This document shows positions 39,860 through 56,485 of a stretch of 64,000 nt of DNA, piece by piece (position 1 is the stretch's first letter; the number at the start of each line of letters is the position of its first letter). The notes beneath the pieces were generated by a model. It was not told the origin of the DNA and searched no databases. It saw nothing but the letters and a program-made list of their open reading frames with translations. This stretch comes from an uncultured Alphaproteobacteria bacterium (GTDB taxonomy: Bacteria > Pseudomonadota > Alphaproteobacteria > Rs-D84). The stretch lies in assembly GCA_944392815.1 (NCBI GenBank), contig CALXXY010000001.1:160001-224000 (forward strand), read 5' to 3'. Position numbers and translations under genes: made by a program.

Positions 39860-39928
39860 GAATATGTCCCTGATATCAGGGACTTTTTCATTTTTATACT
39901 TAAATATTCCCTGCCCTTTATTTATTTT

Positions 39929-39950
39929 TTTGCTACCTATTTGCTACTGA
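39929..39950 (+). repeat. Integrase arm-type sites, left end (TTTGCTAC x2)
   Basis: TTTGCTACCTATTTGCTACTGA, near-identical to 54062-54083. Confidence 0.7.
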
Positions 39951-40013
39951 GAACATTTAAAATTGTTCTGTATTATTATTGAATATTATATATTTTTATA
40001 TATCATACAACCT

Positions 40014-40568: not shown

Positions 40569-41058
40569 AGTTCCTTTGAAAGCTCACTTATTATCTTCAA
40601 AAGAAGAAAATAATAAACAGCATGACGCTGATTTAATAGAACGAGAAAAAGCGCTGTTTCAAAAATACGGGTTAACACGACCTGCCCAACTATCCCCAGA
40701 CACCAGAAAACTTATCCAACTAATGGCAGTGGACTTAAACATAAATGGATTTAAGACAGCAAACGAAGTTAAACCGTGTGGTCGACCAAATAAATGGAAA
40801 GAAATAGATGTTATTTTATTATTCGGAATACGAGTATACCTTATGCAGCAAAAACATCCTACTTATACTTTGGTAAATATTATAAACCATGTCTCCAAGA
40901 AGTATTATCCGGACGAAAATCCCAAAAGCCTGTACACACGATATCATGAAATTTTTAACAATAGCGTTAACACAAAATTAATAACATACATAAAACAAAC
41001 AATATCCAACAAAAACATAGAAGAATTAGAAAAACAACTTTCCAATATACAACAATAA
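40546..41058 (+). CDS. Hypothetical protein (possible DNA-binding regulator)
   Basis: GRP.KW motif and helical C-terminus; precedes the HTH gene. Confidence 0.5.
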   Translation: MSTNNILEVPLKAHLLSSKEENNKQHDADLIEREKALFQKYGLTRPAQLSPDTRKLIQLMAVDLNINGFKTANEVKPCGRPNKWKEIDVILLFGIRVYLMQQKHPTYTLVNIINHVSKKYYPDENPKSLYTRYHEIFNNSVNTKLITYIKQTISNKNIEELEKQLSNIQQ

Positions 41059-41176
41059 TCGTTATACGAAAAACAAATCAGAATATTCGTATACGTTTTT
41101 TGTTATACGAATATTATTTTCCTTTATCCGTATAAATCCGCCTTTTATGATTTTTTTGAATTTAAAAGGAGGATAA

Positions 41177-41383
41177 ATGAACAATGAAACATTAAATTCA
41201 TCGGCTTTAATGGATCAGCGCGCTGCTGCCGCATACCTGGGAACTACTGTAGGCACTTTGAACACATGGCGACATTATGGAAAACAAAAAATACCATTTA
41301 TGCGCTGGGACAATTGCATACGATACAGAAAAGAAGATTTAGATGCATTTATTGCCAAGAACATAGAAAATCCGATTGAATAA
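41177..41383 (+). CDS. Helix-turn-helix excisionase/AlpA-like protein
   Basis: AAAYLG..VGTL..WR...IPF......RYRKEDLDAFI; AGGAGG RBS. Confidence 0.85.
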   Translation: MNNETLNSSALMDQRAAAAYLGTTVGTLNTWRHYGKQKIPFMRWDNCIRYRKEDLDAFIAKNIENPIE

Positions 41384-41463
41384 AAATAATACTCTAATCT
41401 AGCTTGACTATCAGGTTGTGCCGCATATGGCTATTCCTGATATCATGCTTTTTTCAATAAGAT

Positions 41464-41997
41464 ATGCGCACAATAACCAGCGCAGTTAATATCACTATGG
41501 ACGAATTAAATGAACTAAAACATTGGTTAAGCACGCAATACGGGACAAAATCACTATTTTTATCCTTACATTTTAAAACTACGCCCGTGAACAAAGAGTC
41601 TCTTTGTAAACGATGGCGACCAATTTTTACAACCCTGTTCAGATCTATTCTAGGCCGACATTGGATAAAAAGTTATAACCGACATTTTCGGTTCATTGGA
41701 TTTCAGGAGTTCGGAATAAAACATGACCGGCACATTCATTTTATACTAAATGTTAATATTGATATACCTACTGAATTTATAATAGAGAAATTAAAAACTT
41801 TGTCGTTTCGTCTTAATATGGATATATGGACAGACGAGACAGAAAAAATTCATATACCAAAACAACATGGCGACAATCTGATGATAAAACAAATATATTC
41901 AGAACGAATTTTTGACTATATAACCAAAGAAATCCGGATTTTTATACCAAATTCACCAAACCACAGGATAATATTAGATATCGACATAATTCACTAA
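41464..41997 (+). CDS. HUH rolling-circle Rep-like protein
   Basis: E......HIHFIL (HUH) and DYITKE (YxxK). Confidence 0.6.
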   Translation: MRTITSAVNITMDELNELKHWLSTQYGTKSLFLSLHFKTTPVNKESLCKRWRPIFTTLFRSILGRHWIKSYNRHFRFIGFQEFGIKHDRHIHFILNVNIDIPTEFIIEKLKTLSFRLNMDIWTDETEKIHIPKQHGDNLMIKQIYSERIFDYITKEIRIFIPNSPNHRIILDIDIIH

Positions 41998-42158
41998 ACT
42001 GTATGCCTAAAGTCGCACACAAAAACAATAAAAAGCGATAATTGGTGACAGAAACGCGAACAAATCTTACCAACGCCACAGAATCCGTGGCTTTGCGAAG
42101 AAAATCGTTTCTGTCGTTAATATCGCACATTTTTTCAAACCCCGAAAATCTGGCACTT

Positions 42159-42521
42159 CTAACAACTTTTACGATTATTTGAATACACGGACCATATAAG
42201 CACAATTAACAATGCACAGATTCCTAGTCCAACCCCAAGCAAAACATCACCATTCTTTCGGAACCATTCAGCGCGCAGATATTCTCTTTCATATTCTTTC
42301 TGTAATTCTTTACGACTTCTTATTGTTTGTTCTTTCAAACGCCTTTCCTTGTATTGCTCCGCTATATTTTTTGTTGACGTCGGATCGTAACCGGCTTCTC
42401 TGGCCTTTTGATATAATTCTTGTTGATATATAGCCTGCTCTCTATCAAATTGTTCTACAGTCATGGCACTAGCCGATGTAATACCCAAAAACATAATAAA
42501 TAATATTAAATACTTTTTCAT
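42159..42521 (-). CDS. Hypothetical exported or membrane-anchored protein
   Basis: Signal peptide, coiled region, C-terminal TM helix. Confidence 0.65.
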   Translation of the reverse strand: MKKYLILFIMFLGITSASAMTVEQFDREQAIYQQELYQKAREAGYDPTSTKNIAEQYKERRLKEQTIRSRKELQKEYEREYLRAEWFRKNGDVLLGVGLGICALLIVLIWSVYSNNRKSC

Positions 42522-42628
42522 TCTATTACCTTTTGTTGATTCGACAACCTTGTCGATCCAAAATTTTCTCTTATAGCTTAATTTTGCAAAAGCATATTCA
42601 GATATGAGCAGAATCAGATAACGGCATA

Positions 42629-42877
42629 TTATTTTTCTTTCCTTATCTTCAGAAACACTTTATATACGATATATTGGTATAAGAATAAACATACAAAATA
42701 CCCAGCAGCACCAAGAATTAAACTCAGCTCTTTATTCTGTCCTATACTCGTATCCGAAAGCCCAAATAATTCTATAATTCCACCAAGAATCAGAGCAGGA
42801 ATCAACAAAGAACATAAAAATTCTACCACCGCCCAAATAGGTTTTCCACCTGTATAAAGTTTGTAAATCATCGGCAC
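42629..42877 (-). CDS. Small two-TM hypothetical protein
   Basis: 82 aa, two hydrophobic helices, GGGGG RBS; lies downstream of the C4-like leader. Confidence 0.6.
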   Translation of the reverse strand: MPMIYKLYTGGKPIWAVVEFLCSLLIPALILGGIIELFGLSDTSIGQNKELSLILGAAGYFVCLFLYQYIVYKVFLKIRKEK

Positions 42878-42915
42878 CCCCTTTTACATAAGAAAAGGCC
42901 ACCCAATAAGAGAGT

Positions 42916-43111
42916 GGTCGGGGAGTTGATAAATCACTGTATTACTGATTCTGTTGCCTTCGAGTTACCTCTGTTTTATAGCAAACAGCTCCCCGACATA
43001 AATCAGGGATATAACGATGCAAAAAGCATCGAAACACCAGATTACGATGCTTTCGCACCGAATACAGTAGGCTTATCACAGCCCCGAACCCAATTCCCAT
43101 TGGATTCGAAG
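42916..43111 (-). ncRNA. C4/CI-like antisense RNA plus its downstream target leader
   Basis: Minus strand: three hairpins exposing UGAUAA and ACUGUAUU; complementary AAUACAGU..UUAUCA ~130 nt downstream inside a GUCGGGGAG/CUCCCCGAC stem. Confidence 0.6.
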
Positions 43112-43114
43112 TTG

Positions 43115-43143
43115 ATTCTATCAAGAAAAATAGAAAAACGCAA
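43115..43143 (-). promoter_or_regulatory. Sigma70-type promoter for the C4-like RNA
   Basis: TTGCGT-17 bp-TAGAAT on the minus strand, a few nt before the first hairpin. Confidence 0.6.
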
Positions 43144-43182
43144 AGAAAATACTTATGCCAAACCAAGCTTTATACCATATGC

Positions 43183-45399
43183 TTATATTTCTTTATCTCG
43201 CTGTTTTTTATGTTCTTCATAAATGCTTTTCATACGCTCAGTTACCACAAGCTCAGCTTCTTTTATATCAAATTTATCTTTTAAGATACTTCTATAACGC
43301 ATAAAATGTATGATGCTAATTTGGCTAAGTTCATCAGAGACTATCAAATTCCATAATAAAACAATGACTTTCTTTACTTCGCTTGTGGTATACTTTGGGC
43401 TTTTAGTGAAATAATCATCATAATACCTATTTATACAGTAAAATAAATTTTCACAATTTTTTACTACACTTTCTAAATATGCTCTATCCGATAACACATC
43501 TAAGAAAACCTTATCTTTCTCTAAAATAAGATCAAATACGCTAGACAGCTCTAGTTTTGTGTTGGGATAGTCATTATTAAATGTTTTGTATTTTTCCCCC
43601 ATCCTGTTCTTGTACTCTTGCTTTATCCTTTCTTTCATTTGTTTTATAATAGTAGCAAGACTATCGTGTTCTATACTCGGGGTAATATATTCACAACACT
43701 CATCAAAAAGCTCCCCCAATTCTTTCAATGTAAAACCAGACAGACTCTTATCAAGCATCATACTCAAGAAATCTTTCTTAGCAGATATAATTTCTTGATC
43801 TTTAATACCAACTATACGAGGCTTATGCAAAAATAAATTTATTAAATTTGTAGAATAAATCGTCCATTCGTCAGACTTTTGCATAATGTCCTTACCAACT
43901 TCCAAGGCCATAAGCATATTACTCTTATGTCTTTGCATTTCATGATCCACAGTTTGAGTACCTATATTCATTTCGTACATATTGTATATATTTACGATAT
44001 CTCTTAATGCAAATGCGGATTTTTTATTTCTTATGTATTTTTCTACATCTTCTTTGGTCTCACATTTATCAAACTCTTTAATGGTTATTATAATGGCTTT
44101 AGAATTATCAGAATAATCTATAAAAAACTCTTCTCTTTTTCCTTCATCAAACATTTTATGAGTCAGATCTTTTATAAGAAGGTAATTTGAATTTTTCTTA
44201 TTACAGTATCGGCCTACAAGAATATCCAGTTCTTTTTTTTGTTGTTCAACTGCTTCTTCTTTATTTCTACTAATAGCTAAATCTATATTGCTTTTTATAT
44301 CTGTGCTCAATTTTAAAGCATAAAATAAATCACCCGCGACATACCTAAATATTATCGATAATAAAAATGCTTTTTTATCGATTTCAAACGGATAAAATCT
44401 TTGTAACTCAACCTCTCGTTCTAACAAATCCCTTAAAATTGTTTTTATTTGTCTGGGATTATTTGGAAAAGAATCCGCATTCCTAATTAGAAAATCCTCT
44501 GTGAAGATTTTGGCTTTTCTAAAGTCTCCTGTTAAAAGTTTTTTCAAGAAATACCTTTTCGAATCATTTGTCATTGCTGGGATATAAAAATGAAAATCAA
44601 TAAATTTATTTATAAATTCGATATTCCAAAGAGCATTTCCCGCTTCTTTCAAAGAAAGGTCTACCTTATCTCTGTCCAACAAGAAAATAAAATTAAAATT
44701 TTCAATTCCAAATAAATCAGATAATTTTGTAAATAAATTTGGAATATCTTCAAATTTTGGGCTTCTATCTATATCATCCAAAACAATTATAAAATTTTTA
44801 TTCTTTGATAACTTCTTTAGTTTTGTTTTTTTCTTTTCATAAGACAAACGAAATAAATCTTGTATTGTACCAAAATATGAAGGTAGTTTTACTTTATCAA
44901 ATATTCTAGGCAACATTAAAAAGGCAGAAAAAAGGGAAACAGGTAATATAATTTTAATATATGGAATTAACAGAATAAAAGAATCAAATAAAAAATACTT
45001 TGTGCATATTATATCTGACAAACAAACTGCCAACCAAGCACAAAATACATATTTCATAAATCCATAAAATAGCCTTTTACTTTTCTGGCACAAATTATAA
45101 TTAGTTAATATTTCTAATAAAGCATCTACTATTTCATCTGAATTTTTATATGCCCACGTATTAAAATCTATAAAGATATATTCTTTCCTAGCCAATTCTT
45201 TCACCATACCAATGATGGATGTTTTTCCGCTTCCCCATTCACCATAAAGACCCATATTACAGCCCTTTTTTATACCATCGGTATCTTTATAACTAATATT
45301 TTTATTTTTTATCGTGCTAACTATATTTTGTGCTATTGTTGCAAAACCTAATAAATCTTTTTCAACATTAACTGTTGGAACTTCTGCCAAATTATTCAT
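43183..45399 (-). CDS. KAP-family P-loop NTPase
   Basis: GLYGEWGSGKT, FNTW, two TM helices, VLDDIDR, KFID, NPRQIK. Confidence 0.88.
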   Translation of the reverse strand: MNNLAEVPTVNVEKDLLGFATIAQNIVSTIKNKNISYKDTDGIKKGCNMGLYGEWGSGKTSIIGMVKELARKEYIFIDFNTWAYKNSDEIVDALLEILTNYNLCQKSKRLFYGFMKYVFCAWLAVCLSDIICTKYFLFDSFILLIPYIKIILPVSLFSAFLMLPRIFDKVKLPSYFGTIQDLFRLSYEKKKTKLKKLSKNKNFIIVLDDIDRSPKFEDIPNLFTKLSDLFGIENFNFIFLLDRDKVDLSLKEAGNALWNIEFINKFIDFHFYIPAMTNDSKRYFLKKLLTGDFRKAKIFTEDFLIRNADSFPNNPRQIKTILRDLLEREVELQRFYPFEIDKKAFLLSIIFRYVAGDLFYALKLSTDIKSNIDLAISRNKEEAVEQQKKELDILVGRYCNKKNSNYLLIKDLTHKMFDEGKREEFFIDYSDNSKAIIITIKEFDKCETKEDVEKYIRNKKSAFALRDIVNIYNMYEMNIGTQTVDHEMQRHKSNMLMALEVGKDIMQKSDEWTIYSTNLINLFLHKPRIVGIKDQEIISAKKDFLSMMLDKSLSGFTLKELGELFDECCEYITPSIEHDSLATIIKQMKERIKQEYKNRMGEKYKTFNNDYPNTKLELSSVFDLILEKDKVFLDVLSDRAYLESVVKNCENLFYCINRYYDDYFTKSPKYTTSEVKKVIVLLWNLIVSDELSQISIIHFMRYRSILKDKFDIKEAELVVTERMKSIYEEHKKQRDKEI

Positions 45400-45700
45400 A
45401 CATATGCCCTTTCATTATAAAGAATTGTATTATAATAGTATAAAACTAAATTCCTAGCATTAGAATAATGCGCCTCTAAAAGGCTATTAAAATTATCATC
45501 ATAAAAATATCAAAATTTGATGCATATTGACTACTTTCACTTATTTAACATAATTATTACCAAGAGTACTTCATTATAACAACAATAAGGAACTCTTATT
45601 CATATGTTTTTGGACAATTTAAAGATCACCTATCGATTTAAACTTGCACTTAGATCATCATTAAAAGCTCAAGGAGTTTGTTGCCATATTAGCACACCCT

Positions 45701-46129
45701 TCATCCCTTTATATACGAATCAAATTTTTCTATAAAACTGCGTGCATTTAAAAACAACAACCTTACCTGTTCCATATTTATATGATTAATATTTATCGAT
45801 GCTGTATGCGCGCTACTCTGATTCCTTAGATTTTTAATTTGCTGAATTGACGAAATTTCCTCGAATAAAAATACATTCTGTCCATTAGCACCAAGAACCC
45901 CTCTACAGTGATCAAACACATCTTCCGGTTCTTTAGCATTGCATTTTTCACGTATTAAAATCAAATTAGCTTGTACATACTCATCAATTTCTGCATTAAT
46001 TTTTACGATATAATATTCTGCTAATATGGCATTCAAAAGGCCATAATTATTCCCGATTTTGACACTATCAGGAATTTCTTGCAAAATATTATTTATCAAC
46101 TGCAAAAGCTGTTCCGAACTATTAAGCAC
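45701..46129 (-). CDS. HEPN-like protein
   Basis: LRNQSSAH (RxxxxH-like) near the C-terminus; directly downstream of DUF262. Confidence 0.65.
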   Translation of the reverse strand: MLNSSEQLLQLINNILQEIPDSVKIGNNYGLLNAILAEYYIVKINAEIDEYVQANLILIREKCNAKEPEDVFDHCRGVLGANGQNVFLFEEISSIQQIKNLRNQSSAHTASININHINMEQVRLLFLNARSFIEKFDSYIKG

Positions 46130-46139
46130 TAGTAAAACC

Positions 46140-47186
46140 CTATTTCAGTATATTTCTAGCTATTTCTAGTCGGGTATCAACGAATTTTTTTGACGTTGTC
46201 CCATTACCCCTCAGAATAATTTCCATATACTCTGGGTTTTGCTTTAAAAGTTCAAATTTTTCGGGTAAATTTTCCACTTCCCCGTTGTGCATCAATGCCA
46301 CTATTACCGAGTCAAGCAAAGTATAATTTGGAATATGGCTTTTATTTATTGAAAAGGGATGTTCTGGTAATACATTATCAATTTGTTCCACTGCTTTTAA
46401 GAAAAGTTCTTGCACATCTGTCTTTTCGCTATTTTTGTTAGACTCCATATATTCATTTAGATAAGACTTCATTACCCCCGTATATTCCACTTCATAAAAA
46501 GCGAAACAACGAAGCACTAACTCCAAATCCAAGAAACGCTTTCCCAGTCCTTGTACCCCCAATATATTTTGCCAATGCATATTTTTATTTGTCTCTTCTA
46601 AAACCATAAGAAATTTGCCGTATGCTATACTTCTTCGAATTTCCATATTATTCAAAGACACCCCTCCGGTATTTAATCTTTCAAAAATCTTATATAAAAT
46701 AGACCTATCGTTAAAATTTGTTGGACGTATAACAGTCGCTGACAACACAACATTTTGCAATCTTCGTTGTTGCACTTGATCTAATTCACTAAACTTTTTA
46801 TTACAATATGGGCTATTTTCATTTAACTTTTTTAATTTGAATTCATCATTTAAAAAGGCCGCAATAGTACTTATACGCTGCAAACCATCAACAATAGAAA
46901 AACTTGCGCCATCTTTTGTAAACAAAAACACCGGAGGGACAGGCAACCCCATAAAAAAAGATTCTATTAAACGAGATTTACGAACATCATCCCACACGGG
47001 CCGACGTTGAAAATCAGGTACATTAAAAGTATGGTCTTTAAAATATTTAGAGTAATTTTCTAGCGTGTAAAAAGCGGGATATGTATTAATTTCATAATTT
47101 GTATTATCAGGCTCCATTTCGTCTTCTTCGATAATTTCTCTTTGTTTATCAATTTCTTCTAACCGCAATAAAACATCATCTGCCAT
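46140..47186 (-). CDS. DUF262 (ParB/Srx-like) domain protein
   Basis: PDFQRRPVW, LIES...LPVP, VDGLQR, IFERLNTGG..L...EIR. Confidence 0.9.
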   Translation of the reverse strand: MADDVLLRLEEIDKQREIIEEDEMEPDNTNYEINTYPAFYTLENYSKYFKDHTFNVPDFQRRPVWDDVRKSRLIESFFMGLPVPPVFLFTKDGASFSIVDGLQRISTIAAFLNDEFKLKKLNENSPYCNKKFSELDQVQQRRLQNVVLSATVIRPTNFNDRSILYKIFERLNTGGVSLNNMEIRRSIAYGKFLMVLEETNKNMHWQNILGVQGLGKRFLDLELVLRCFAFYEVEYTGVMKSYLNEYMESNKNSEKTDVQELFLKAVEQIDNVLPEHPFSINKSHIPNYTLLDSVIVALMHNGEVENLPEKFELLKQNPEYMEIILRGNGTTSKKFVDTRLEIARNILK

Positions 47187-47466
47187 GATTTTAACACCCC
47201 TATAAATAGTTAATTAGTGTATTTAGTATATAAAAATATGTGTTTTTAAGCAAGAACTGTTATCAATAACATAAAAAATAATATACCCCCGATAACACTA
47301 TACGTTCGAAACATTTTCTTTACAAGAAAGCATTCCAATATCCACAGCCTTTTTCATGGAGAAACAAATCATACTATTTGCAATAAATTGTACACACATC
47401 AAAAATTTATTGACTTTACAGCATTTTATTTTACCATGCTTGTTATCAAAATAAAGGTTTATTAAC

Positions 47467-48663
47467 ATGCGGTTATCATCTATTCCGTACTCTGCGAGTA
47501 TAAACTTACTTCAGTGCAATAAATCTGTTCCTTGTAATCGTTTACTGGCCGACACAAACCTTATTCAACAAAATAGCCCTGGACATATTATATATACACC
47601 AATAGTTCAAAAAATAAAAAAGAACATTGAAAACATCACATTGGAAAACGCTGAGAAATACGGTTTCAATGAAATGCTGTTTCCGGTTTTGATGGAAACC
47701 AAGCTTTTAGACGCATCAGGCAAAACTCAAGAATATGCCGATGAATTTTATGCACCGTCCGATTCAAAAGGAAATTTGATTATCTCGCCAACCACGGAAG
47801 AAAGACTGATAGATTTTGTGGCACGCAGTGGCGTTTTATCCTATAAATCATTGCCTATGCGATTTTCACAGGTGTCTAATGTATACAGAAATTTGAAAAG
47901 AACTGAAGGATTGTATAAATCACGAGAAATTTCATGTGTTGTTTTGACTGCTATTGACAAAGATAATGCAACTTATTTACAAACAATGAAAGATTTCAGA
48001 TTGTTATGTGAAGAATCATTCAAACAAATGGGCATCCCAAATTTTTATATCCAAGATAAAATGTCTGGCGCAGTTGAATTCTTTTATACAACAGAGTTAG
48101 CTGATAGACCGCTAAGCAAAAGTATTATCAACAACTTTGGAAACAAGAACAAGTTTGAAACCCAAGAATTGTTTGGTAGTTTATCCATGGGCTATCCTTT
48201 TAAACAGAGTGAAAATTTCAATTTATTTTACACGGACAACAGAGGCACACGCAAGAAACCTGTAGTCAGCACATATGGTATCGGAACCCAACGTTGTATC
48301 CACACATTATTTGAACAAGCGAAAAACGGGCGTACAGATGCGTTTTCTCCAGCGGTACGTCCTTTTGACGTTGATATTATTGTATTATCCAAAGACACCC
48401 AACATGCTCAAATTAAGATATTGGCCGAACAATTGCAAAAAAATAAGATCCATTATTGTATCGACGATCGTAATAATAGCATGAAAGATAAAATGCGATT
48501 TTCGGAATTCTTTTCCATACCATGTCGTATTATTATCGGTGACAAAGAAATTGCACAACAACAATATTCTGTAAAACCGTTGACGGTAAATGAGCCAATG
48601 TATGTTGATATAGCAAAAGCAATAGAACTTGTAAAACAATTAACAATAGAGAGAGTGAGATGA
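47467..48663 (+). CDS. Highly diverged ProRS paralog (class II aaRS core + anticodon-binding domain)
   Basis: SPTTEE, SYKSLP, altered motif 2 YRNLKRTEGLYKSREI, motif 3 TYGIGTQR, DDR and IP.RIIIG.KE anticodon domain. Confidence 0.75.
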   Translation: MRLSSIPYSASINLLQCNKSVPCNRLLADTNLIQQNSPGHIIYTPIVQKIKKNIENITLENAEKYGFNEMLFPVLMETKLLDASGKTQEYADEFYAPSDSKGNLIISPTTEERLIDFVARSGVLSYKSLPMRFSQVSNVYRNLKRTEGLYKSREISCVVLTAIDKDNATYLQTMKDFRLLCEESFKQMGIPNFYIQDKMSGAVEFFYTTELADRPLSKSIINNFGNKNKFETQELFGSLSMGYPFKQSENFNLFYTDNRGTRKKPVVSTYGIGTQRCIHTLFEQAKNGRTDAFSPAVRPFDVDIIVLSKDTQHAQIKILAEQLQKNKIHYCIDDRNNSMKDKMRFSEFFSIPCRIIIGDKEIAQQQYSVKPLTVNEPMYVDIAKAIELVKQLTIERVR

Positions 48664-49664
48664 CCCGACCTGTATCTTCCTGGAACAACCCAAAGCAACA
48701 CTTAGACAAACTGTTAACAACACCTTGGTATAGAGTCATTAACAAAATATTTTCTGAGATATTGGTACTTACTCACGATTTTTATAAAACTGAAAATATT
48801 GCACCCACAATTTTTCCAATTACTACTGGTTCTGTCAGTAGTCCTTTTGGGCTTGGGAGTGATTCTTTGCCAGTAAAAATCAAAATTAAGAATAATGACA
48901 TATATTTGGCAGATTCTATGCAGTTTTCATTGGAAATTGCATCTCGCTTGAACACCAATGGAGCATATTATATTATGCCGTCTTTTCGTGGCGAAGATAT
49001 GGATGCCCGTCATCTTAACGAATTCGTTCATTCAGAGGTCGAAATAAAGGGCTCTCTGGACGATGTTATGGCGTTGGCCGAACGTTACATAAAATTTCTT
49101 ATCAAGGGATTAAAGTTATCTTGCGCAACAGAAATTACAGAAGTATGTGGCACAACGGAACACTTAGATACAGCTTTGGCACGTCCATTTCATAAAATTA
49201 GATTTGAAACCGCTATGCAAGAATTAGCCAGCGTCGAGGATGCATTTAAAAGGTTGGATGATAAATTATACGCTATTACATCTGCTGGAGAACATGCGTT
49301 GATTGACAAATATGGTGATTTTACATGGATAACAAACATGCCTCACAAAGCAGTGCCTTTCTATCAAGCAGAAGAACCTGACACAGAATATTCTATGACA
49401 GGCGATTTACTGGCTGGAATTGGCGAAATATTAGGCTGTGGACAACGTGTATTCTCAGCTCAAGACGCAATTAATTCTTTAGATAATCACAATATTGACA
49501 AGACTGGTTATCAATGGTATATCCACATGCGTGAAATAAATCCTCTACAAACATCAGGCTTTGGAATGGGGATAGAGCGGTTTATTTTATGGTTGTTAAA
49601 ACACAACGACATCCGTGATTGCACTTTACTGATTCGCAACCACAAGGATGTCGTATTTCCTTAA
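48660..49664 (+). CDS. AsnRS/AspRS-like catalytic-domain-only protein (asparagine synthetase A-like)
   Basis: YLADSMQF, SFRGE..D.RHLNEF.HSE.E, GEILG.GQR, YQWY, SGFGMGIERF; no OB anticodon domain. Confidence 0.82.
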   Translation: MTRPVSSWNNPKQHLDKLLTTPWYRVINKIFSEILVLTHDFYKTENIAPTIFPITTGSVSSPFGLGSDSLPVKIKIKNNDIYLADSMQFSLEIASRLNTNGAYYIMPSFRGEDMDARHLNEFVHSEVEIKGSLDDVMALAERYIKFLIKGLKLSCATEITEVCGTTEHLDTALARPFHKIRFETAMQELASVEDAFKRLDDKLYAITSAGEHALIDKYGDFTWITNMPHKAVPFYQAEEPDTEYSMTGDLLAGIGEILGCGQRVFSAQDAINSLDNHNIDKTGYQWYIHMREINPLQTSGFGMGIERFILWLLKHNDIRDCTLLIRNHKDVVFP

Positions 49665-50629
49665 TGTTTAAGGATAGTTAAAGAATTATCAGAAATTTTT
49701 ACCTGACCACCAATTGGTAAGGTTACCATTGGATAAGTGTGTCCAAAATCGATGTTGGCCAGCACAGGCATAGCCTTTAATTCTGGATGAATATTAAATA
49801 TAGAGACAATATCTTCTTTAGATATTTCGTTTTTCTGTTCCATGCGTCCAAACAATATTCCACGAACATTTTTAAACCAGGGTTGATGTATTGTGGATTG
49901 CAAAATTCTATCCAATATGTACTTGTTACCACCCTCTATTTCCACCGCCAAAATCACATCTTCATCAATGGGCATATACTGTGTGCCATACAACAATTGG
50001 ACAGTTGTGGCTTCGCCACCAATCAGGGTACCGGTAGCATTTCCATGGTTAATTACCCAAAAGCCGTCGTTTTCATGAAAAGTTCTATCTTCTTGGTTTA
50101 TAAACCATTCAGGGTCGTCACTCCATTTTGTGCTGGCCACTAATGTCTTTTCAGAATTATCAAACAGTATGTGTTTCAAATAGTCCATAGAATAATCTGC
50201 GCCGTATTTCATTCCCAATGTAGAAAAATGTGGTCCATAATATGAAACAATACCTGTTTTTGCCAGTATTGCGTTTTGTAATGCAGCAATGTCAGAATAC
50301 CCGATTAACATCTTAGGATTTTGCCTTATCAAATCATAATCTATTAAATCCAGCAACTGATTAGAATTAAAACCACCAATAACTGTGAATATAGCTTTTA
50401 CATTACTGTCTTTATACGCATCGTGAATATCGTTCAGACGGGCCACCACAGGTGAAGAAACAAAGGCGTCTATAATGTCCAGATTTTTCCCAAAAGATAC
50501 TTTCAACCCCATATCTTCCAATCTTTGTTGGGCCAAGGCTCTTACATCTTCGCCAATAATTTTATACGACATAGCCGGCGCAATAATACGTACTTCATCA
50601 CCAGCTTTTAGTTTTTGTGGAAAAATCAT
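49661..50629 (-). CDS. S66 peptidase, MccF/LD-carboxypeptidase family
   Basis: IGGFNSNQLL..IDY, GYSD (Ser), E, DFGHT (His); Trp-containing loop WSDDPEW. Confidence 0.88.
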   Translation of the reverse strand: MIFPQKLKAGDEVRIIAPAMSYKIIGEDVRALAQQRLEDMGLKVSFGKNLDIIDAFVSSPVVARLNDIHDAYKDSNVKAIFTVIGGFNSNQLLDLIDYDLIRQNPKMLIGYSDIAALQNAILAKTGIVSYYGPHFSTLGMKYGADYSMDYLKHILFDNSEKTLVASTKWSDDPEWFINQEDRTFHENDGFWVINHGNATGTLIGGEATTVQLLYGTQYMPIDEDVILAVEIEGGNKYILDRILQSTIHQPWFKNVRGILFGRMEQKNEISKEDIVSIFNIHPELKAMPVLANIDFGHTYPMVTLPIGGQVKISDNSLTILKH

Positions 50630-50640
50630 CTCTCTCTCCT

Positions 50641-51465
50641 TTATTTATTTGTGCCAAATACAAATATATTATTACCACGAGCAGCCACATCATTGTTTTT
50701 GATATGCTCTTTTTCCATATCAAAAATCCGTTGAAAAATTTCTTTATTTTCTAGTATATCGGCTATTTCGCCAGTTTGTCCACGCAATTGGGTTTCTTGA
50801 TACCCAGGATAAATCAGATTTGGAAAACCAGAACAAAAATCAACTGTTATATTATGCTTTTTCATCATATCCTTGATGCTGTTCGGCGAGAACATATTAA
50901 TATATGGCATTTGATCTGTAAAACGACCACGTCCAGACAGACATTTATTTGCCTCATCAATATTTCCCAGTTTTGTATTAAAGAATGCTGCGTGATACAT
51001 ATTTGGTGCCAATGTACAAATTATACCGCCTTTTTTTGTTACGGATTTTAACTGTTCAAAAAAATTATCAACATTTTCACCTACGAAACCGATAACATTA
51101 TGAAAATTAAATACAAAATCAAACTGTTCGTCTACTTGTGACAAATCGTTCAAATCTTGTAACATAAAATCCCATCTTCCCTGATACGGAATTGACTTAT
51201 GTTTAGCTACATCCAACATTTCTTTGGAAAAGTCTATCGTAACACCAGAACACTCTGGAAATTCCTCTAATAATTTATGAGACCAACGACCTGTACCACC
51301 ACCCGCATCACAAAACCTGAAATTCTTAGGTAATTTAGGAATAATATATGTTTTTATGGAATCCCACAACAGGGCATCTGATAACCGCCAATAACTTTGA
51401 TTTTCTACCAAGTCATATTCTGATGCTTTCTCTGCAAAATATTTTAATACAGAATCTTTGTACAT
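50641..51465 (-). CDS. Class I SAM-dependent methyltransferase
   Basis: DAGGGTGRW, DFSKEML, FDFV..HNV. Confidence 0.88.
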   Translation of the reverse strand: MYKDSVLKYFAEKASEYDLVENQSYWRLSDALLWDSIKTYIIPKLPKNFRFCDAGGGTGRWSHKLLEEFPECSGVTIDFSKEMLDVAKHKSIPYQGRWDFMLQDLNDLSQVDEQFDFVFNFHNVIGFVGENVDNFFEQLKSVTKKGGIICTLAPNMYHAAFFNTKLGNIDEANKCLSGRGRFTDQMPYINMFSPNSIKDMMKKHNITVDFCSGFPNLIYPGYQETQLRGQTGEIADILENKEIFQRIFDMEKEHIKNNDVAARGNNIFVFGTNK

Positions 51466-51478
51466 AGAACCCTCCTCT

Positions 51479-52756
51479 TTATCTAAGTTTTGTCTGTTGT
51501 GTTAATCTTATTAAATCGTTAACTGACATCTGTGTAACGTTACCATTTTTGCGATCTTTTACCTCGACATTGCCTGTATTAAAGAATGTTTTACCGATAA
51601 TTATTCTATTTGGAATACCAATAAGGTCACTTTCTGCAAATTTAATACCTCCACGTACATCTTTGCGGTCGTCATATAAGACATCAAATTGTGCATTTAA
51701 TAACTGTTGATATATATTGTCTACAACAGCTATTTCGTCATCTTTTACCGCCATTGAAATTAGATGCCATTCAAACGGCGCTATTTTAGCAGGCCATACC
51801 AATCCCCTGTCGTCACTTAAGCACTCTGCAACAGTACCCATAACACGGCTTGGACCAATACCATAACACCCCATGATAATAGGTTTGCTTTGGCCCTTGT
51901 TATCAATAAAATTCGCATCAAACGGTGCTGTGAAACGTGTACCAAGCTTAAATATGTTTCCAACTTCTACAGCGCGTTTTTGTTCAAATGTTTTTTCTAT
52001 ACCATCCGTATAGTTTGGAATAATATCGCGCAAAGCACATTTATCTCCGATAATTTCACGATTGATAGCAATTTTTGTCCCTGGAATTATATAAATGGTA
52101 TCTTCACCGGCATCGGTCAATGTTTGGAATTCATGAGAATATTTTGCAAACGCACCTCCACTGGCATATGTAAAATAAGTTTTATCACCAATACCACAAT
52201 CCGTGTAGAACTCCATATACATTTGAGCAACTTTTTCATAATACATATCTAAATCTGCCTGACTTTCATGAAAAGAATACAAATCATTCATACGAAATTC
52301 TTTACACCGGAACAAGCCAGACTTTGAACGAGGTTCATCTCTGAACTTGTTTTGAATCTGAAATACCGCCTTTGGCAAGTCTTTATAAGAAGAGATAAAA
52401 TTAGTCACAAAAGGCGTAACAACCTCTTCGTTTGTTGGACTTAAGGCATATTCTTTATCTGCATGGCCATGAATCTTATATAAAACATCTATCTTATCCC
52501 AACGACCGGTTTGCTTCCAAACATCTGACGGCTGCAAAACAGGCATCATAACTTCTTGGCCGTTTACAGTTTGCATATACTGACGGATTAAATTCTCAAT
52601 TTTGTTCAATGTTCTAAAGCCCAATGGCATATAAGAATAAGCCCCCCCCATTAATTTATGAATAAAGCCTGCGCGTGTCAACAACTGGGCGTTTTTAGAC
52701 ATCTCTTGTACATTGGAGGCTTTTTGTGTTTTATAAAACAAGTTACTTTGGCGCAT
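51479..52756 (-). CDS. Second proline--tRNA ligase (bacterial type, no editing domain)
   Basis: LLTRAGF, W..TGRW, PTNEE, SYKDLP, FRDEPR..SGL.R..EF.M.DLYSFH, EVGNIFKLG, MGCYGIG.SR, WP..IAPF. Confidence 0.88.
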   Translation of the reverse strand: MRQSNLFYKTQKASNVQEMSKNAQLLTRAGFIHKLMGGAYSYMPLGFRTLNKIENLIRQYMQTVNGQEVMMPVLQPSDVWKQTGRWDKIDVLYKIHGHADKEYALSPTNEEVVTPFVTNFISSYKDLPKAVFQIQNKFRDEPRSKSGLFRCKEFRMNDLYSFHESQADLDMYYEKVAQMYMEFYTDCGIGDKTYFTYASGGAFAKYSHEFQTLTDAGEDTIYIIPGTKIAINREIIGDKCALRDIIPNYTDGIEKTFEQKRAVEVGNIFKLGTRFTAPFDANFIDNKGQSKPIIMGCYGIGPSRVMGTVAECLSDDRGLVWPAKIAPFEWHLISMAVKDDEIAVVDNIYQQLLNAQFDVLYDDRKDVRGGIKFAESDLIGIPNRIIIGKTFFNTGNVEVKDRKNGNVTQMSVNDLIRLTQQTKLR

Positions 52757-52883
52757 AACAAATACCTTTTGTGTTGCCTACATATACACTCTTCTGTGCT
52801 AAGAATACCGAAATCATAGGAAAAATCAAGAAGTTCTTGAATATAAAGCTATCAAAAAACAGCGTTTATAGTCCATATTAAAA

Positions 52884-54056
52884 TCATACACTGTTTATCA
52901 TCCTATCCACGGCTTTTTGCATAGAGGCACGGACTGGATCGGCAGACAAACGGGCATAAATAGCAGTTGCAGCGGTTGATTTATGCCCCAAAGACCTGCC
53001 AATTACATTCATGCTTGCTCCTGTAATCGCTTGATAACTTCCCATAGTTCTACGTAAATCATGTAGTCGTAGATTATCTATATTCGCTCGTCTTAGAAGA
53101 CTTTTCCATGCACGTTTTGGCTCTTCCAGATGGCCACTGGCACTTTGTTCACTTGGTAACACCCAAGAACTATTACTATTTTGTTTAATTTTTAATAATA
53201 ATTCTCTTAACTGTTCGATAATCGGGACCTGCATAGGTTCACCATTTTTAGTATCTGATAAGTATATAAAGCCATTTACTAAGTCTATCTGAGACCAGCG
53301 CAGGCTCAATACATTACTTCTACGCTGTCCAGAATATAGAGAAATCAGCACATAATTCTTAAACACATCATTGGGTTCGTTATTTAATGCGTCAAACAAT
53401 CGTTTTAATTCGTCATCTCGTAAAAATCTATCCCGACTTATTTCCCTGAACATTTTTATACCATCAGTTGGATTTTCAAAACGTTTCGGGAATCCGCATT
53501 CATAAGCTTTGTTATACATATGTCTGATAAGCGCCAGCATACGATTGGCGGTATACGAACTTACCGTTTGTCGCAAGAAGTTATGATGTCGCGCTACTTC
53601 ATCACGGCTTATTGTTCGCATCTGACGATTATGAAATACAGACAAATGATTTCTAAAAGTAGCATTATCGTTAATTTGCGTTTTCTGCTTTTTATGCGTT
53701 AAGGAATGCACAGGTAAATATACTTTTTCATAATATTCTTTCAATGTCATATCATGCAATTCATCAAAGCGTTCTTGCGCTGGATCTTCGCCGCATATTG
53801 CCCTTTCACGCATTGTATGCGCTTTACGACGCGCAGTTTCCAATTCAACATGTCCGAACTTACCTATCTTTATACGTTTAGGCATCCCCTGATATTTCAT
53901 ATAGGCATAAAATGTTTTAGAGCCACCATAAGAAACAATTAAACACAGACCATCTTTTGAGCCTGAATCATAATACACAACCTGGTTTTTTTCCTTGGTT
54001 GGAATAGGCAAAGAAGCTATTGCTTTTTTAGTAAAATTTATGGTCTGTGTTTTCAT
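52884..54056 (-). CDS. Tyrosine recombinase/integrase (P4-like, with arm-binding domain)
   Basis: N-terminal GL.L.V...GSK arm domain; SGQR, TKNG, HDLRRT, LGH, YA catalytic residues. Confidence 0.95.
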   Translation of the reverse strand: MKTQTINFTKKAIASLPIPTKEKNQVVYYDSGSKDGLCLIVSYGGSKTFYAYMKYQGMPKRIKIGKFGHVELETARRKAHTMRERAICGEDPAQERFDELHDMTLKEYYEKVYLPVHSLTHKKQKTQINDNATFRNHLSVFHNRQMRTISRDEVARHHNFLRQTVSSYTANRMLALIRHMYNKAYECGFPKRFENPTDGIKMFREISRDRFLRDDELKRLFDALNNEPNDVFKNYVLISLYSGQRRSNVLSLRWSQIDLVNGFIYLSDTKNGEPMQVPIIEQLRELLLKIKQNSNSSWVLPSEQSASGHLEEPKRAWKSLLRRANIDNLRLHDLRRTMGSYQAITGASMNVIGRSLGHKSTAATAIYARLSADPVRASMQKAVDRMINSV

Positions 54057-54061
54057 ATTTT

Positions 54062-54110
54062 TTTGCTACTTATTTGCTACTGATGGCATTTTTTGCTACC
54101 GTTTGCTACC
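54062..54110 (+). repeat. Integrase arm-type sites, right end (TTTGCTAC x4)
   Basis: TTTGCTACTTATTTGCTACTGA...TTTGCTACCGTTTGCTACC. Confidence 0.7.
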
Positions 54111-54206
54111 AATTTTGATTAAACTATAACAAACTTAGAAATCGTTGTAAAGCGCAGAATACTAAGAAAAATTTAACATTGTAAAACACCGTTAAACATA
54201 CGACTT

Positions 54207-54258
54207 TCTGATTTGTAATCAGAGGGTCGTTGGTTCAAGTCCGACAACTGGCACCAGA
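54207..54258 (+). repeat. att site: duplicated 3' half of tRNA-Thr
   Basis: Identical to 39810-39861. Confidence 0.95.
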
Positions 54259-54313
54259 TTTTCCCCGCTGGGTGGCGGGGATTTATTTATGATTTATATA
54301 TCAACTGAAAACA

Positions 54314-54709
54314 TCAATATCCCGACACGACCAAACTGTGTATTAAATCGTTAATTTGTTTGGCTATTGCTGTGGAATCAAAACGTTTTAAGCCATTGGT
54401 TGCGATATCTGACATTTGTTTGGCTTTTGCCGGGTGTTCAAAAACAAACTTCATGTTTTTTGCCAACGCGTTGGCATCGCCAGTTTCAAATAATAAACCG
54501 CCGCGTCCATTCAACAGTATTTCACGTGGTCCGTTTTTACACTTGGACGAAATGCAGGGAACACCCAATGCCACAGATTCAAGCAACACTGTCGGCAGCC
54601 CTTCGCTTTCGCTGGATAAAATATTTGCAATGGCGCCCCGCATAATGCCATATGGATTATTCAGGGCACCAGTAAACACAATGCGTTTTACGGACGGCAA
54701 TTGGGGCAA
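54314..54709 (-). pseudogene. C-terminal fragment of a GT4 glycosyltransferase
   Basis: NPY, SSESEGLPTVLLES, GPREIL; only ~130 aa, N-terminal domain absent. Confidence 0.7.
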
Positions 54710-55144
54710 TTATTAAATGAACTGCAATCAAACGATATTTTAATTGCCGCCGAGATATCACGGCTGGGTCGATCTTTGCTGGAGGTCATGCATATACTGG
54801 AATACTGTTTGAATAAAAATTGCCAGGTGTGGACCATCAAAGAAAATTACAGATTGGGCAACGATATTCAATCCAAAGTTATGGCGTTTGCGTTTGGATT
54901 ATCGGCCGAAATAGAACGCAATTTAATATCGCAACGAACCAAGGCGTCATTGGAAAGCGTGCGGGCAACCGGCAAACGATTGGGGCGGCCTTTTTCGGCG
55001 CAATCAAAAAAATTGAAACTGTCCAGCAATACCAAAAAAGTAAAAAAATTGTTGGACATGGGGTTGACCAAGTATCGGATTGCCAAAATAATGCAGGTTA
55101 AACAATCAACTGTATCCAGATTTATTGTCCGAATGGGCTGGTGA
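54701..55144 (+). pseudogene. N-terminally truncated serine resolvase/invertase (Mpi-like)
   Basis: EISRLGRS, AEIERNLISQRTK, LGRP and HTH present; catalytic Y.RVS N-terminus missing. Confidence 0.75.
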
Positions 55145-55188
55145 ATATTTCCCCCACCCCGCCGGCGGCGGGGGGGGTATGATGGTGA

Positions 55189-55707
55189 TTATTTTTTACG
55201 TTTTGTGGGTTTGGATTTTTTGTTTTTTGGGGTCACGGAATCATCGTCGTACACAGCGTAATCGTATTCGTCATATTCTGTATCAATTTCGTTGGGCGCG
55301 ACGTCCATGATTTCATTCAACACACGACGGGCGCGGGGATTGCGGTCTGAATATTTTTTCAGTCCAACAACCAATGCCGCTGTTATCATTTTTTCCATGT
55401 CTGCGCTGGACACATGTTCAGACACCCGGTCGCGGATATTTTGCGCCATATGTTTGACTGCATGTTTGGCTTTGTACAGCAACGAATGTCTGCGACGAAT
55501 TTTATCGATGATTTCCATAATCCACATGATTATCAAAAACGCCACCAATGGCACCGCCACACACCAGACAAAATATTTTAACACAGAATCACTGCAGAAC
55601 GACAGACCGAACATAGCGTTGCAAGTGTTCGGACAATGCAGCAGCATAACTGCAGCGATTTCGTACAGCGCCAAAATTGTTAACCCCAGTTTATATTTTA
55701 AAAACAT
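55189..55707 (-). CDS. Hypothetical membrane protein
   Basis: Two TM helices, acidic/basic tail, GGAG RBS. Confidence 0.7.
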   Translation of the reverse strand: MFLKYKLGLTILALYEIAAVMLLHCPNTCNAMFGLSFCSDSVLKYFVWCVAVPLVAFLIIMWIMEIIDKIRRRHSLLYKAKHAVKHMAQNIRDRVSEHVSSADMEKMITAALVVGLKKYSDRNPRARRVLNEIMDVAPNEIDTEYDEYDYAVYDDDSVTPKNKKSKPTKRKK

Positions 55708-55741
55708 TTTATTTCTCCCTTGGTTTTATTTGATTAATTGA

Positions 55742-56485
55742 TTAAAAATTCATAAAGCGGATACCCATCAGCACAGTCCAATCATTGCGCCGCCAATTCC
55801 CGCCCAGGCGATGTCCTGCACGAATCCAAACGCCTGTGGTTCTGTTCAGCATTGTACCCAATTCCAATTCGGCCAAAAATTCCTGGCGGCCGGTTTCGTA
55901 ATTTACCCATACCTGGGGATCGGCCAGAACCCACCAACCCTGGTTAGACGCATATCCCAGCAACATTCTGTATTGGCCCTGGTTTATATCTTGGGAAATG
56001 GCGGGGTCGGTGTTATGCAGCGAAATGAACTGTTTCGCGACCAGCGCGCCGAATATGTTATGCCCAAACGAATACACGTATCCCAAAATCGGGTCAAAAG
56101 TATATTGCTGGGCGCCCAGGGTATCTTCGGTTGCGGTGGGCAATAAAAATTCTGCTGCACCAATCAGGGTATGACGCCCCCAGGTATGCTGGGCACGGCC
56201 ACGCAATGTTAAATCGCCAATGCCGTTGTCGGAACGACCGTGGCCACTGTACCGCACCAGCGGCAATTCTGCATTAATACCGAACACGCGTTTAATTGCA
56301 TGGTCGTATTTTAATGTCAACGATGTGATTGATGAATCACCAAATGCACGCAACTGTGGCAACAGTTCCAGTTTGGTTAAATTGTCCGCTGGGTTAATAC
56401 CACGTGCGGTGTCTGCGCTGTCCGCGGCCCATACGTTTGGTGCGGCCAGGATTACGGTCAAAACCGTCAGTATTGTTTTTTTCAT
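55742..56485 (-). CDS. Putative outer-membrane channel (MetA-pathway-like transporter)
   Basis: Signal peptide, GIGD, LPTA....LG, C-terminal RFMNF. Confidence 0.65.
   Translation of the reverse strand: MKKTILTVLTVILAAPNVWAADSADTARGINPADNLTKLELLPQLRAFGDSSITSLTLKYDHAIKRVFGINAELPLVRYSGHGRSDNGIGDLTLRGRAQHTWGRHTLIGAAEFLLPTATEDTLGAQQYTFDPILGYVYSFGHNIFGALVAKQFISLHNTDPAISQDINQGQYRMLLGYASNQGWWVLADPQVWVNYETGRQEFLAELELGTMLNRTTGVWIRAGHRLGGNWRRNDWTVLMGIRFMNF

Follow-up and report, generated by a model that had tools for sequence, protein, structure and literature searches.

A mobile five-gene cassette of the agrocin 84 kind on an alphaproteobacterial island, a candidate source of a prolyl-adenylate mimic

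The agn cluster on plasmid pAgK84 of Rhizobium rhizogenes K84 directs the formation of agrocin 84, a phosphoramidate mimic of an aminoacyl-adenylate, and is the closest described relative of the locus presented here: a cassette of five genes at positions 47467–52756 of a 64 000-nucleotide stretch of DNA (the window) from an uncultured alphaproteobacterium (assembly GCA_944392815.1, contig CALXXY010000001.1, positions 160 001–224 000). According to the 2021 review by Travin and colleagues, no compound of this class besides agrocin 84 has been characterised, and the agrocin 84 pathway is unsolved; a proposal assigns the phosphoramide bond to AgnA, AgnB2 is a resistant leucyl-tRNA synthetase (LeuRS) that is ∼1000-fold less sensitive to the toxic moiety, and AgnC1 is remotely similar to prolyl-tRNA synthetase (ProRS) (PMC8323819). 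The only relatives of agn reported there are a single cluster from Ensifer and 19 homologs of agnC1 from actinobacteria, whose clusters mostly encode a MetRS. The review also distinguishes three classes of microcin C immunity enzymes (MccF, RimL-type GNAT and HIT) and states that MccF enzymes cleave aspartate from processed microcin C and also act on isoasparaginyl-adenylates (PMC8323819). For ascamycin, a further report describes experiments in which the AlaRS-like AcmF moves alanine from Ala-tRNA to the nitrogen of a nucleoside sulfamate; AcmD is an extra, more resistant AlaRS that charges Ala-tRNA for AcmF (PMC12945691). Phosmidosine, finally, is a phosphoramidate nucleotide antibiotic that resembles proline-AMP (PMC11229370, PMC6429109).

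Compared with the agrocin 84 cluster, the cassette contains the same kinds of component, namely an AgnA-type enzyme, an MccF-like S66 peptidase, an S-adenosylmethionine (SAM) methyltransferase, an aminoacyl-tRNA synthetase (aaRS)-like protein and a full-length aaRS. In the annotated agn region these appear as agnA, a SAM methyltransferase (AgnB1), the LeuRS agnB2, agnC1 and, further on, agnC5 (`MccF-like protein'). The two differ in size, agn having 17 genes that include exporter, uptake-moiety and modified-pentanamide genes; in the putative immunity aaRS, which is a LeuRS in agn and a ProRS in the cassette; in the methyltransferase, which is of a subfamily other than that of AgnB1; and in their carrier, a conjugative plasmid in one case and a tRNA-integrated island in the other. 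Judged from these homologies, the system looks like a minimal, probably ProRS-directed and island-borne variant of the agrocin 84 kind and not one without relatives.

The five genes and their homologs

An initial annotation of the window had proposed five open reading frames (ORFs) arranged as two convergent operons, together with a separate ProRS of the host. All five were reproduced exactly in our ORF list, and the overlaps, the intergenic gaps and the host gene were confirmed. The features are as follows.

47467–48663, plus strand: ProRS1, 398 amino acids, a diverged ProRS-like protein that lacks the INS domain and retains an anticodon-binding domain; proposed prolyl-loading ligase.
48660–49664, plus strand: AsnX, 334 amino acids, an AgnA-family class IIb catalytic core without a tRNA-binding domain.
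49661–50629, minus strand: S66, 322 amino acids, a serine peptidase of the MccF-like branch and homolog of AgnC5.
50641–51465, minus strand: MT, 274 amino acids, a class I SAM methyltransferase (methyltransferase cluster 3 of this analysis), of a subfamily that takes the AgnB1 position in other loci.
51479–52756, minus strand: ProRS2, 425 amino acids, a near-canonical bacterial-type ProRS without INS; proposed self-resistance copy.
61019–62455, minus strand: type I housekeeping ProRS of the host, outside the island (TIGR00408, 455 bits against a cut-off of 437; archaeal/eukaryote-like type).

The genes for ProRS1 and AsnX overlap by ATGA (48660–48663), with a purine-rich stretch upstream, and the stop codons of the convergent AsnX and S66 genes share TTAA at 49661–49664. 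On the minus strand, the coordinates leave 13 bp between ProRS2 and MT and 11 bp between MT and S66.

AsnX links the cassette to agrocin 84. It is 43.8% identical over residues 1–334 to the product of agnA (annotated as `Agrocin84-synthetase'; pAgK84, CP000632.1), with an E value of 4e-88. Pfam finds the class II D/K/N core (128 bits) and no other domain in AsnX, and the alignment to the 451-position AsnRS model covers positions 127–447; since it starts at position 127, the N-terminal anticodon-/tRNA-binding part is absent. A large protein collection holds 855 relatives, many of them 40–60% identical, in which the AsnRS-like motifs are invariant. The matches to asparagine synthetase A equivalogs stay below the cut-offs (239.7 against 389 bits for NF005055 and 231 against 322 bits for NF005053), and on this score and its context an assignment of AsnX as asparagine synthetase A was rejected. 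None of the 36 same-genus genomes that were searched contains a close AsnX homolog; six matches of 27–30% identity in open frames of 236–447 amino acids are taken to be ordinary AsnRS genes.

S66 carries both Peptidase_S66 domains (Pfam) and is homologous to agnC5 of pAgK84 (29% identity over 318 amino acids with E 8e-38 in tblastn; 124 bits in phmmer). Against PDB entries it scores 309 bits with the MccF-like BA_5613, 146 bits with Bacillus anthracis MccF, 109 bits with Escherichia coli MccF and at most 59 bits with LdcA, which places it on the MccF branch and not with the LdcA type. The alignment shows GYSD, GHT and a conserved upstream Glu, which we take to be the catalytic triad. The genome encodes no other S66 protein.

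MT is a class I SAM methyltransferase by its Pfam match. Its best NCBIfam matches are weak and are to BchM, CmoM and BioC, followed by enzymes of the MenG/UbiE type; trans-aconitate methyltransferase stands lower in the list, and all matches lie far below their cut-offs. Like trans-aconitate methyltransferase, BchM, CmoM and BioC act on carboxyl groups. A match to AgnB1 was not obtained by tblastn or phmmer and appears only after jackhmmer iteration; AgnB1 groups with methyltransferase cluster 2 (29 loci), while cluster 3, to which MT belongs (15 loci), comes directly after the AgnA homolog in L056, L061 and L073.

ProRS1 combines the tRNA-synt_2b domain (the class II G/H/P/S/T core) with HGTP_anticodon (Pfam), and falls below every NCBIfam cut-off for ProRS, its best scores being 145 bits against 558 and 117.9 bits against 306.7. 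An exhaustive search gave 1684 matches at E ≤ 0.001, and the 31 representatives at E ≤ 1e-30 are all proteins of 283–433 amino acids with a single matching stretch, none of canonical ProRS length. Because all of these best relatives are short and canonical-length ProRS proteins turn up only from ∼1e-23, ProRS1 is by sequence a member of a distinct short ProRS-like family; a word-indexed search returned only 30 close relatives. In the alignment, ProRS1 keeps the motif-2 Arg, the GxGxxR of motif 3 and the TxE motif. All rows of the ProRS1 type have lost the Glu residue of RDE as well as the Asp at the MxD position further downstream, and their GxxFxLG motif is altered and their connecting region is shorter. 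The Phe beside the second Arg is replaced by Ile in the ProRS1 copies of the window's type and is kept in the Streptomyces and Xenorhabdus ligases and in locus L013, which are described below. These signature residues are read here with the functional meaning that they have in aaRS enzymes generally. Against the ligases of the Streptomyces and Xenorhabdus AgnA clusters, ProRS1 scores 139 and 73 bits, compared with 65 and 42 bits for ProRS2.

ProRS2 passes the bacterial ProRS equivalog TIGR00409 (407.3 against 306.7 bits) and contains the HGTP_anticodon domain. It matches Staphylococcus aureus ProRS (PDB entry 5znj) with 323 bits in both halves of the catalytic domain and in the anticodon-binding domain; the two matched stretches flank the place of the INS editing domain, which ProRS2 lacks. 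It belongs to a large family of INS-less ProRS proteins of ∼420 amino acids, more than 100 clusters of which, 51–66% identical and coming from many metagenomes, were seen, some of them named only `aminoacyl-tRNA ligase-related'. ProRS2 is an extra copy: the genome encodes one ProRS besides those of the cassette. The same holds for all four other genomes with a full cassette that were compared, each of which has at least one ProRS outside it, of the archaeal-like type in G062, of the bacterial type in G061 and G065, and of the archaeal-like type with a second, bacterial-type protein in G064. The idea that ProRS2 protects merely by being of bacterial type in a host with an archaeal-like enzyme does not hold in general, as shown by G061 and G065, where the housekeeping ProRS is itself of the bacterial type. 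In G064 (contig C68, 8120–10882), the archaeal-like ProRS lies beside a 436-amino-acid bacterial-type ProRS, both additional to the cassette copies.

The pairing of a diverged with a canonical copy has a precedent in AcmF and AcmD of ascamycin, which resemble ProRS1 and ProRS2 as well as a MetRS pair in locus L069. The likeness is one of pattern: the sulfamate scaffold of ascamycin comes from unrelated genes and its enzymes are class II AlaRS and not ProRS. Microcin C shares with the system proposed here an aminoacyl-adenylate mimic with an N—P bond and an MccF-type S66. It differs in that the cassette region has no ThiF-type MccB and no MccA peptide gene and that the candidate for N—P bond formation is an AsnRS-like enzyme. 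ThiF/MccB was absent among the island ORFs scanned, short peptide genes not having been searched systematically, and this agrees with the initial annotation, which had excluded a microcin C cluster.

Recurrence and mobility

The full unit, alike in gene order and overlaps, is present in six other loci, four of them (L011, L012, L014 and L015) on contigs of metagenome-assembled genomes labelled Alphaproteobacteria or Candidatus Enterousia and two (L018 and L019) on metagenome contigs; a further locus, L017, is partial. Amino-acid identities across the loci are 60–71% for ProRS1, 70–81% for AsnX, 70–80% for S66, 68–90% for MT and 74–84% for ProRS2. Because order and overlaps recur at 60–90% identity, the arrangement is not due to chance. 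The ratio of nonsynonymous to synonymous substitution rates (dN/dS, unsaturated pairs) is 0.03–0.11 for all five genes, which indicates purifying selection; ProRS1 is the most relaxed (0.05–0.11), and ProRS2 gives 0.03–0.05. In L019 (8001–8738) the AsnX frame stops after 245 amino acids, possibly a broken gene or an assembly error.

The flanks of the cassette differ from locus to locus. In L011 and L015 it lies near a tRNA-Ser and a GroES/GroEL-like pair, which in the window's genome is found on another contig. The housekeeping flanks are 50–82% identical to the window's genome, and the carriers are therefore relatives. In L013, AsnX is 79% identical to that of the window and its partners differ: the methyltransferase is of another type, the S66 protein is only 30% identical and the ProRS1-like gene 25%.

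The genome with the cassette amounts to 927 kb (0.93 Mb) in 18 contigs and is 96.8% complete. Cassette DNA is also found in sequencing runs from chicken-gut and other gut metagenomes, four of which may be the source sample; no RNA run is listed as containing it. In the window the cassette lies on a 14.4 kb island of low GC content, in which the GC fraction drops from ∼0.46–0.51 to 0.26–0.38 between ∼39.9 and 54.3 kb. The features that delimit it are as follows.

39784–39859, plus strand: tRNA-Thr (tgt), target of island integration (ARAGORN; Rfam tRNA, 72.6 bits).
39810–39861: attL, a 52-nucleotide direct repeat equal to the 3' part of the tRNA-Thr (repeat search, 100% identity, spacing 14397).
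39923–39958: a 36-nucleotide repeat just inside attL, a candidate arm-type integrase site, 89% identical to 54056–54091.
52884–54056, minus strand: tyrosine integrase of the island (Phage_integrase and Arm-DNA-bind_3).
54056–54091: second copy of the 36-nucleotide repeat, directly upstream of the integrase start (repeat search).
54207–54258: attR, the second 52-nucleotide copy (repeat search), to the right of which the GC content returns to the host level.

The 36-nucleotide repeats are predicted to be arm-type sites of the island integrase, which has an Arm-DNA-bind_3 domain. Taken together, the att repeats, the integrase and the different flanks elsewhere support horizontal mobility of the cassette, as had been proposed at the outset.

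The remaining cargo includes a KAP-family P-loop NTPase gene (43183–45399, minus strand), whose product matches PifA and QatA weakly in its N-terminal part, and a gene for a GmrSD_N protein (46140–47186, minus strand; PADLOC NsnA 211 bits, PD-T4-2_A 168 bits). The 142-residue ORF between them (45701–46129, minus strand) has only a faint PDC-S15 match. Elsewhere on the island, a 177-residue ORF (41464–41997, plus strand) matches the replication-associated ORF2/G2P domain weakly (E 7e-4, below the cut-off), and the remaining small ORFs in 39963–43222 match no family. To the right of attR, at 54314–55707, lie a 131-residue glycosyltransferase fragment, a 147-residue resolvase that lacks about its first 50 residues and a weak RepA_C ORF, apparently left behind by another mobile element or by a rearrangement. 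An Rfam scan of 38000–56000 gave nothing but the tRNA, and a promoter and terminator scan found sites no more often than in shuffled sequence (26 against 26.9 and 3 against 3.8). The promoter-like TTGACT-16-TACCAT at 47410–47437 was discarded as evidence, site numbers being those of shuffled sequence.

The wider family of AgnA homologs

ORFs were clustered for the window and 86 loci containing AgnA homologs. Eighty of these are metagenome loci, many of them short contigs; three lost the AsnX ORF in overlap pruning, which leaves 77 that were counted. Within 6 kb of the AgnA homolog, S66 is found in 37 of the 77, a methyltransferase in 40 and an aaRS or aaRS-like gene in 22. Twenty-six loci extend for 3 kb or more on each side of the AgnA homolog; among these, the same distance holds S66 in 18, a class I methyltransferase in 18, both in 15 and an aaRS or aaRS-like gene in 14. 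The AgnA homologs are the most conserved element of the loci.

The accompanying aaRS is of the Gly, Glu, Met, Ser, Thr, Pro or Leu type, and several loci have pairs. Two GlyRS genes that pass the NCBIfam cut-offs are present in each of L048 and L086, and two members of the same cluster in L065; L081 has two GluRS genes that pass the cut-off, L096 has two cluster members and L041 and L072 have one each. A SerRS in L074 and a ThrRS in L094 both pass their cut-offs. L061 combines a ProRS with a HisRS-like protein, and L073 has the same pair by cluster membership. Pairs of one type, as in the window, thus occur in L048, L086, L081 and L069. Among them, L069 is clearly diverged plus canonical by NCBIfam score, one MetRS lying below the cut-off (246 against 336 bits) and one above it (649 against 598 bits). 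MetRS also heads the tally in a batch scan of 81 further large neighbours, with three members.

LeuRS accompanies AgnA in a Xenorhabdus plasmid as well as in pAgK84. The Xenorhabdus bovienii plasmid has the order AgnA–MT–S66–...–LeuRS–`aminoacyl-tRNA ligase-related protein'–MFS transporter. In a Streptomyces plasmid the order is AgnA–MT–FAD/molybdopterin enzyme–ProRS1-like ligase–S66; a ProRS immunity gene was not found in 259–297 kb of this record, for which the PLSDB gene table is incomplete. Further recurrent neighbours are ABC exporters, AMP-binding enzymes, YcaO with ThiF, and RimL-type GNAT and HIT proteins; with S66/MccF, all three classes of microcin C immunity enzyme are therefore found beside AgnA homologs.

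In a tree of AsnX proteins (quick search, midpoint-rooted, 25 of 71 inner branches open), the window falls in a clade of eight rows that have ProRS-type genes at every locus (support 98). The ProRS-linked pair L061 and L073 stands elsewhere on the tree, so the link to ProRS arose at least twice.

Some gene combinations were noted in passing. In 13 loci (including L029, L031, L041, L048, L051, L055, L058, L064, L065, L074, L089 and L090) the gene immediately upstream of the AgnA homolog encodes a 485-residue RelA/SpoT-type protein (HD_4, RelA_SpoT and TGS), and for some members of the family this points to a step with a pyrophosphorylated nucleotide. A 345-residue protein without a Pfam match (cluster 4) recurs in 14 AgnA loci. 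L035, L040 and L044 show YcaO, the AgnA homolog, a RimL-type GNAT and ThiF without S66, and may be hybrids of agn-like and microcin C-like chemistry. In L101 (Pantoea agglomerans plasmids) the AgnA homolog lies inside a 427-residue gene annotated as GNAT acetyltransferase, possibly a fusion, with an MFS transporter adjacent, and in L102 (a Bacillus pseudomycoides plasmid) it is flanked by a methyltransferase gene on one side and an ATP-grasp gene on the other, and adenosylhomocysteinase is encoded close by.

The literature consulted, mostly outside subscription journals, contained no description of the five-gene cassette, of an AgnA-centred family with swapped aaRS types or of phosmidosine biosynthesis genes. 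To this extent the word `undescribed', used of the system in the initial annotation, holds for the five-gene unit; it does not hold for the kind of system, since AsnX and S66 are homologs of AgnA and AgnC5. That annotation had cited agrocin 84 only for the idea of a resistant aaRS.

A proposed route and its rivals

On balance we favour the reading that the cassette is a minimal mobile agn-like cluster that makes a ProRS inhibitor mimicking prolyl-adenylate and protects its producer. The chemical steps and the product are what we infer from homology and gene context. The end product is taken as a prolyl-adenylate mimic because the immunity-type aaRS is a ProRS and because the aaRS varies between loci while AgnA stays. 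The most likely product would be N-prolyl adenosine 5'-phosphoramidate, possibly O-methylated like phosmidosine. AsnX would be a class II adenylating enzyme that works independently of tRNA and has the nucleotide-amide (N—P) scaffold as its product. AgnA homologs remain 40–55% identical across aaRS types and keep the AsnRS-like motifs, so their substrate is probably common to the clusters: a nucleotide together with Asn, Asp or ammonia, and not the variable amino acid. Most simply, the amino acid would be installed by the aaRS-like ligase, here ProRS1, as a neofunctionalised paralog that loads proline on the nitrogen from Pro-AMP or Pro-tRNAPro in the manner of AcmF. For MT, O-methylation of a carboxylate or of the phosphate, both acidic groups, is proposed, and ProRS2 would be an additional functional ProRS that keeps translation going, like AgnB2 or AcmD.

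S66 is predicted to cut the aminoacyl–N bond beside the phosphoramidate. One possibility is plain immunity, for which MccF is known: S66 would detoxify the product remaining inside the cell, and we give this about an even chance; the GNAT and HIT genes at other AgnA loci fit this role. A somewhat less probable function is the trimming of an Asp/Asn-derived intermediate, isoasparaginyl-adenylate, to free adenosine 5'-phosphoramidate. The latter leads to a broader and more speculative proposal, which we consider possible but doubtful, in which a three-enzyme module of AgnA, methyltransferase and MccF-like peptidase is universal and feeds an exchangeable aaRS-like ligase with its resistant partner. 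AgnA would turn Asn or Asp and ATP into isoasparaginyl-adenylate, as found in processed microcin C, S66 would remove aspartate to give adenosine 5'-phosphoramidate, possibly O-methylated afterwards, and the ligase would load any chosen amino acid on the nitrogen, a natural form of `reaction-hijacking' chemistry.

Phosmidosine, the N-prolyl, O-methyl phosphoramidate of 8-oxoadenosine from Streptomyces, resembles the predicted product as a prolyl-AMP mimic with a methyl group. Its formation would need N—P bond formation, O-methylation, prolyl transfer and ProRS resistance, the activities predicted for the cassette; it differs in the 8-oxo group, for which the cassette has no oxidase. The link between phosmidosine and the cassette is conjecture, and the Streptomyces plasmid AgnA locus is a lead for the phosmidosine genes and nothing more.

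Several observations weigh against the production of a ProRS inhibitor by the cassette. The agn pathway is unsolved, and the roles given above are therefore borrowed from proposals and not from demonstrated reactions. Similarity between ProRS1 and AgnC1 was not detectable by tblastn, phmmer or jackhmmer, MT is not of the AgnB1 subfamily, and BA_5613, the nearest relative of S66 with a solved structure, carries no label beyond `MccF-like'. Among the island ORFs scanned there is no exporter or transporter and no gene for an uptake (`Trojan horse') moiety, while agn has agnG and agnD–F, respectively. The L013 genome has no ProRS2-type gene, and since the partner genes of AsnX differ there, the five genes are not an obligate set and the unit can be re-assorted. 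As the type of housekeeping ProRS varies among carriers, resistance cannot simply follow from enzyme type. Finally, the neighbouring island cargo is phage-defence-like, and a 0.93 Mb genome is an unusual setting for an antibiotic producer.

Some of these points suit an island that makes nothing and shields its carrier from a prolyl- or other aminoacyl-nucleotide antibiotic of its neighbours, with ProRS2 as bypass target, S66 as hydrolase, MT as modifier, and AsnX and ProRS1 as remnants or accessory detoxifiers. MccF-type enzymes and extra aaRS copies are established immunity devices (PMC8323819), the scanned ORFs lack an exporter and the other cargo is of the defence type. We consider such a role unlikely, given that AsnX and ProRS1 are translationally coupled and under selection as strong as that on the other genes (dN/dS 0.03–0.11), that AsnX is homologous to a gene annotated as agrocin 84 synthetase and that AgnA homologs are the best conserved part of the loci. 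The chance that the cassette makes something else, either Pro-tRNA for amide chemistry on a non-nucleotide acceptor or an Asp/Asn warhead with ProRS2 unrelated to immunity, appears smaller still. MccF enzymes prefer acidic aminoacyl groups, which would suit such a warhead. The AsnRS-like signature motifs kept in AsnX, the anticodon-binding domain kept in ProRS1 and the cleavage by MccF of aspartate from processed microcin C and of isoasparaginyl-adenylates (PMC8323819) would agree with it; neither the island nor the genome, however, has an AspRS or AsnRS immunity copy, and an aaRS that changes with the locus fits target-matched immunity. Of the two halves of the initial proposal of a Pro or Asp/Asn analogue, Pro is thus favoured and Asp/Asn is the less likely end product, the immunity aaRS being a ProRS.

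The surroundings of the cassette also call to mind an anti-phage or other intracellular system, in which a modified nucleotide would act inside the cell, for instance during infection, instead of being secreted as an antibiotic. It lies 280 bp from the NsnA/PD-T4-2_A-like GmrSD_N gene and near the KAP NTPase on an integrase-borne island without an exporter among the ORFs scanned, and RelA/SpoT-type genes accompany AgnA homologs in 13 loci. This explanation is improbable in view of PADLOC, none of whose models is matched by ProRS1, AsnX, S66 or ProRS2 and only mad2, weakly, by MT (48.7 bits); moreover, a resistant ProRS would sustain translation for the phage too, the flanks in other loci are unrelated, and the homologous agn cluster yields a secreted antibiotic (PMC8323819). 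We give least credit, and very little, to a metabolic or translational supplement for a reduced genome, with AsnX as asparagine synthetase A, ProRS2 as backup, S66 as murein LD-carboxypeptidase and MT as an unrelated gene. In NCBIfam, the best models for AsnX bear the name `asparagine synthetase A', which public records use as well, and the genome is small and has no second S66 gene; against this stand the AsnX score of 240 bits with the best AsnA model (cut-off 389), the much greater closeness of S66 to MccF-like structures than to LdcA (309 against ≤59 bits), the lack of a close AsnX homolog in the 36 same-genus genomes searched and the joint travel of the five genes on islands.

The preferred reading thus remains an agn-like cluster directed at ProRS. 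The initial interpretation is partly supported: homology and conserved synteny argue for an aminoacyl-nucleotide system that is equipped with an additional ProRS and in which an MccF-like enzyme serves for protection or for processing, and for its combination of diverged and resistant aaRS there is the AcmF/AcmD precedent of ascamycin (PMC12945691).

The cassette is the smallest self-contained relative of agn among the loci compared, with five genes that move as a unit, and it is worth noting that a 0.93 Mb gut bacterium carries it on an integrative island. The AgnA-centred family with exchangeable aaRS partners is much wider than the searched literature describes. The formation of N-acyl phosphoramidate bonds, the use of aaRS paralogs as loading enzymes and the prediction of the target from the resident aaRS all become testable. 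If the three-enzyme module exists, the family would offer plug-and-play aminoacyl-AMP mimics against ProRS, GlyRS, GluRS, MetRS, SerRS, ThrRS and LeuRS, the origin of the N—P bond of agrocin 84 would be explained and the cassette would, with its five genes, be the minimal way to make a compound like phosmidosine. As ProRS has been validated as a drug target, a natural prolyl-adenylate mimic that comes with its own resistance gene would be useful.

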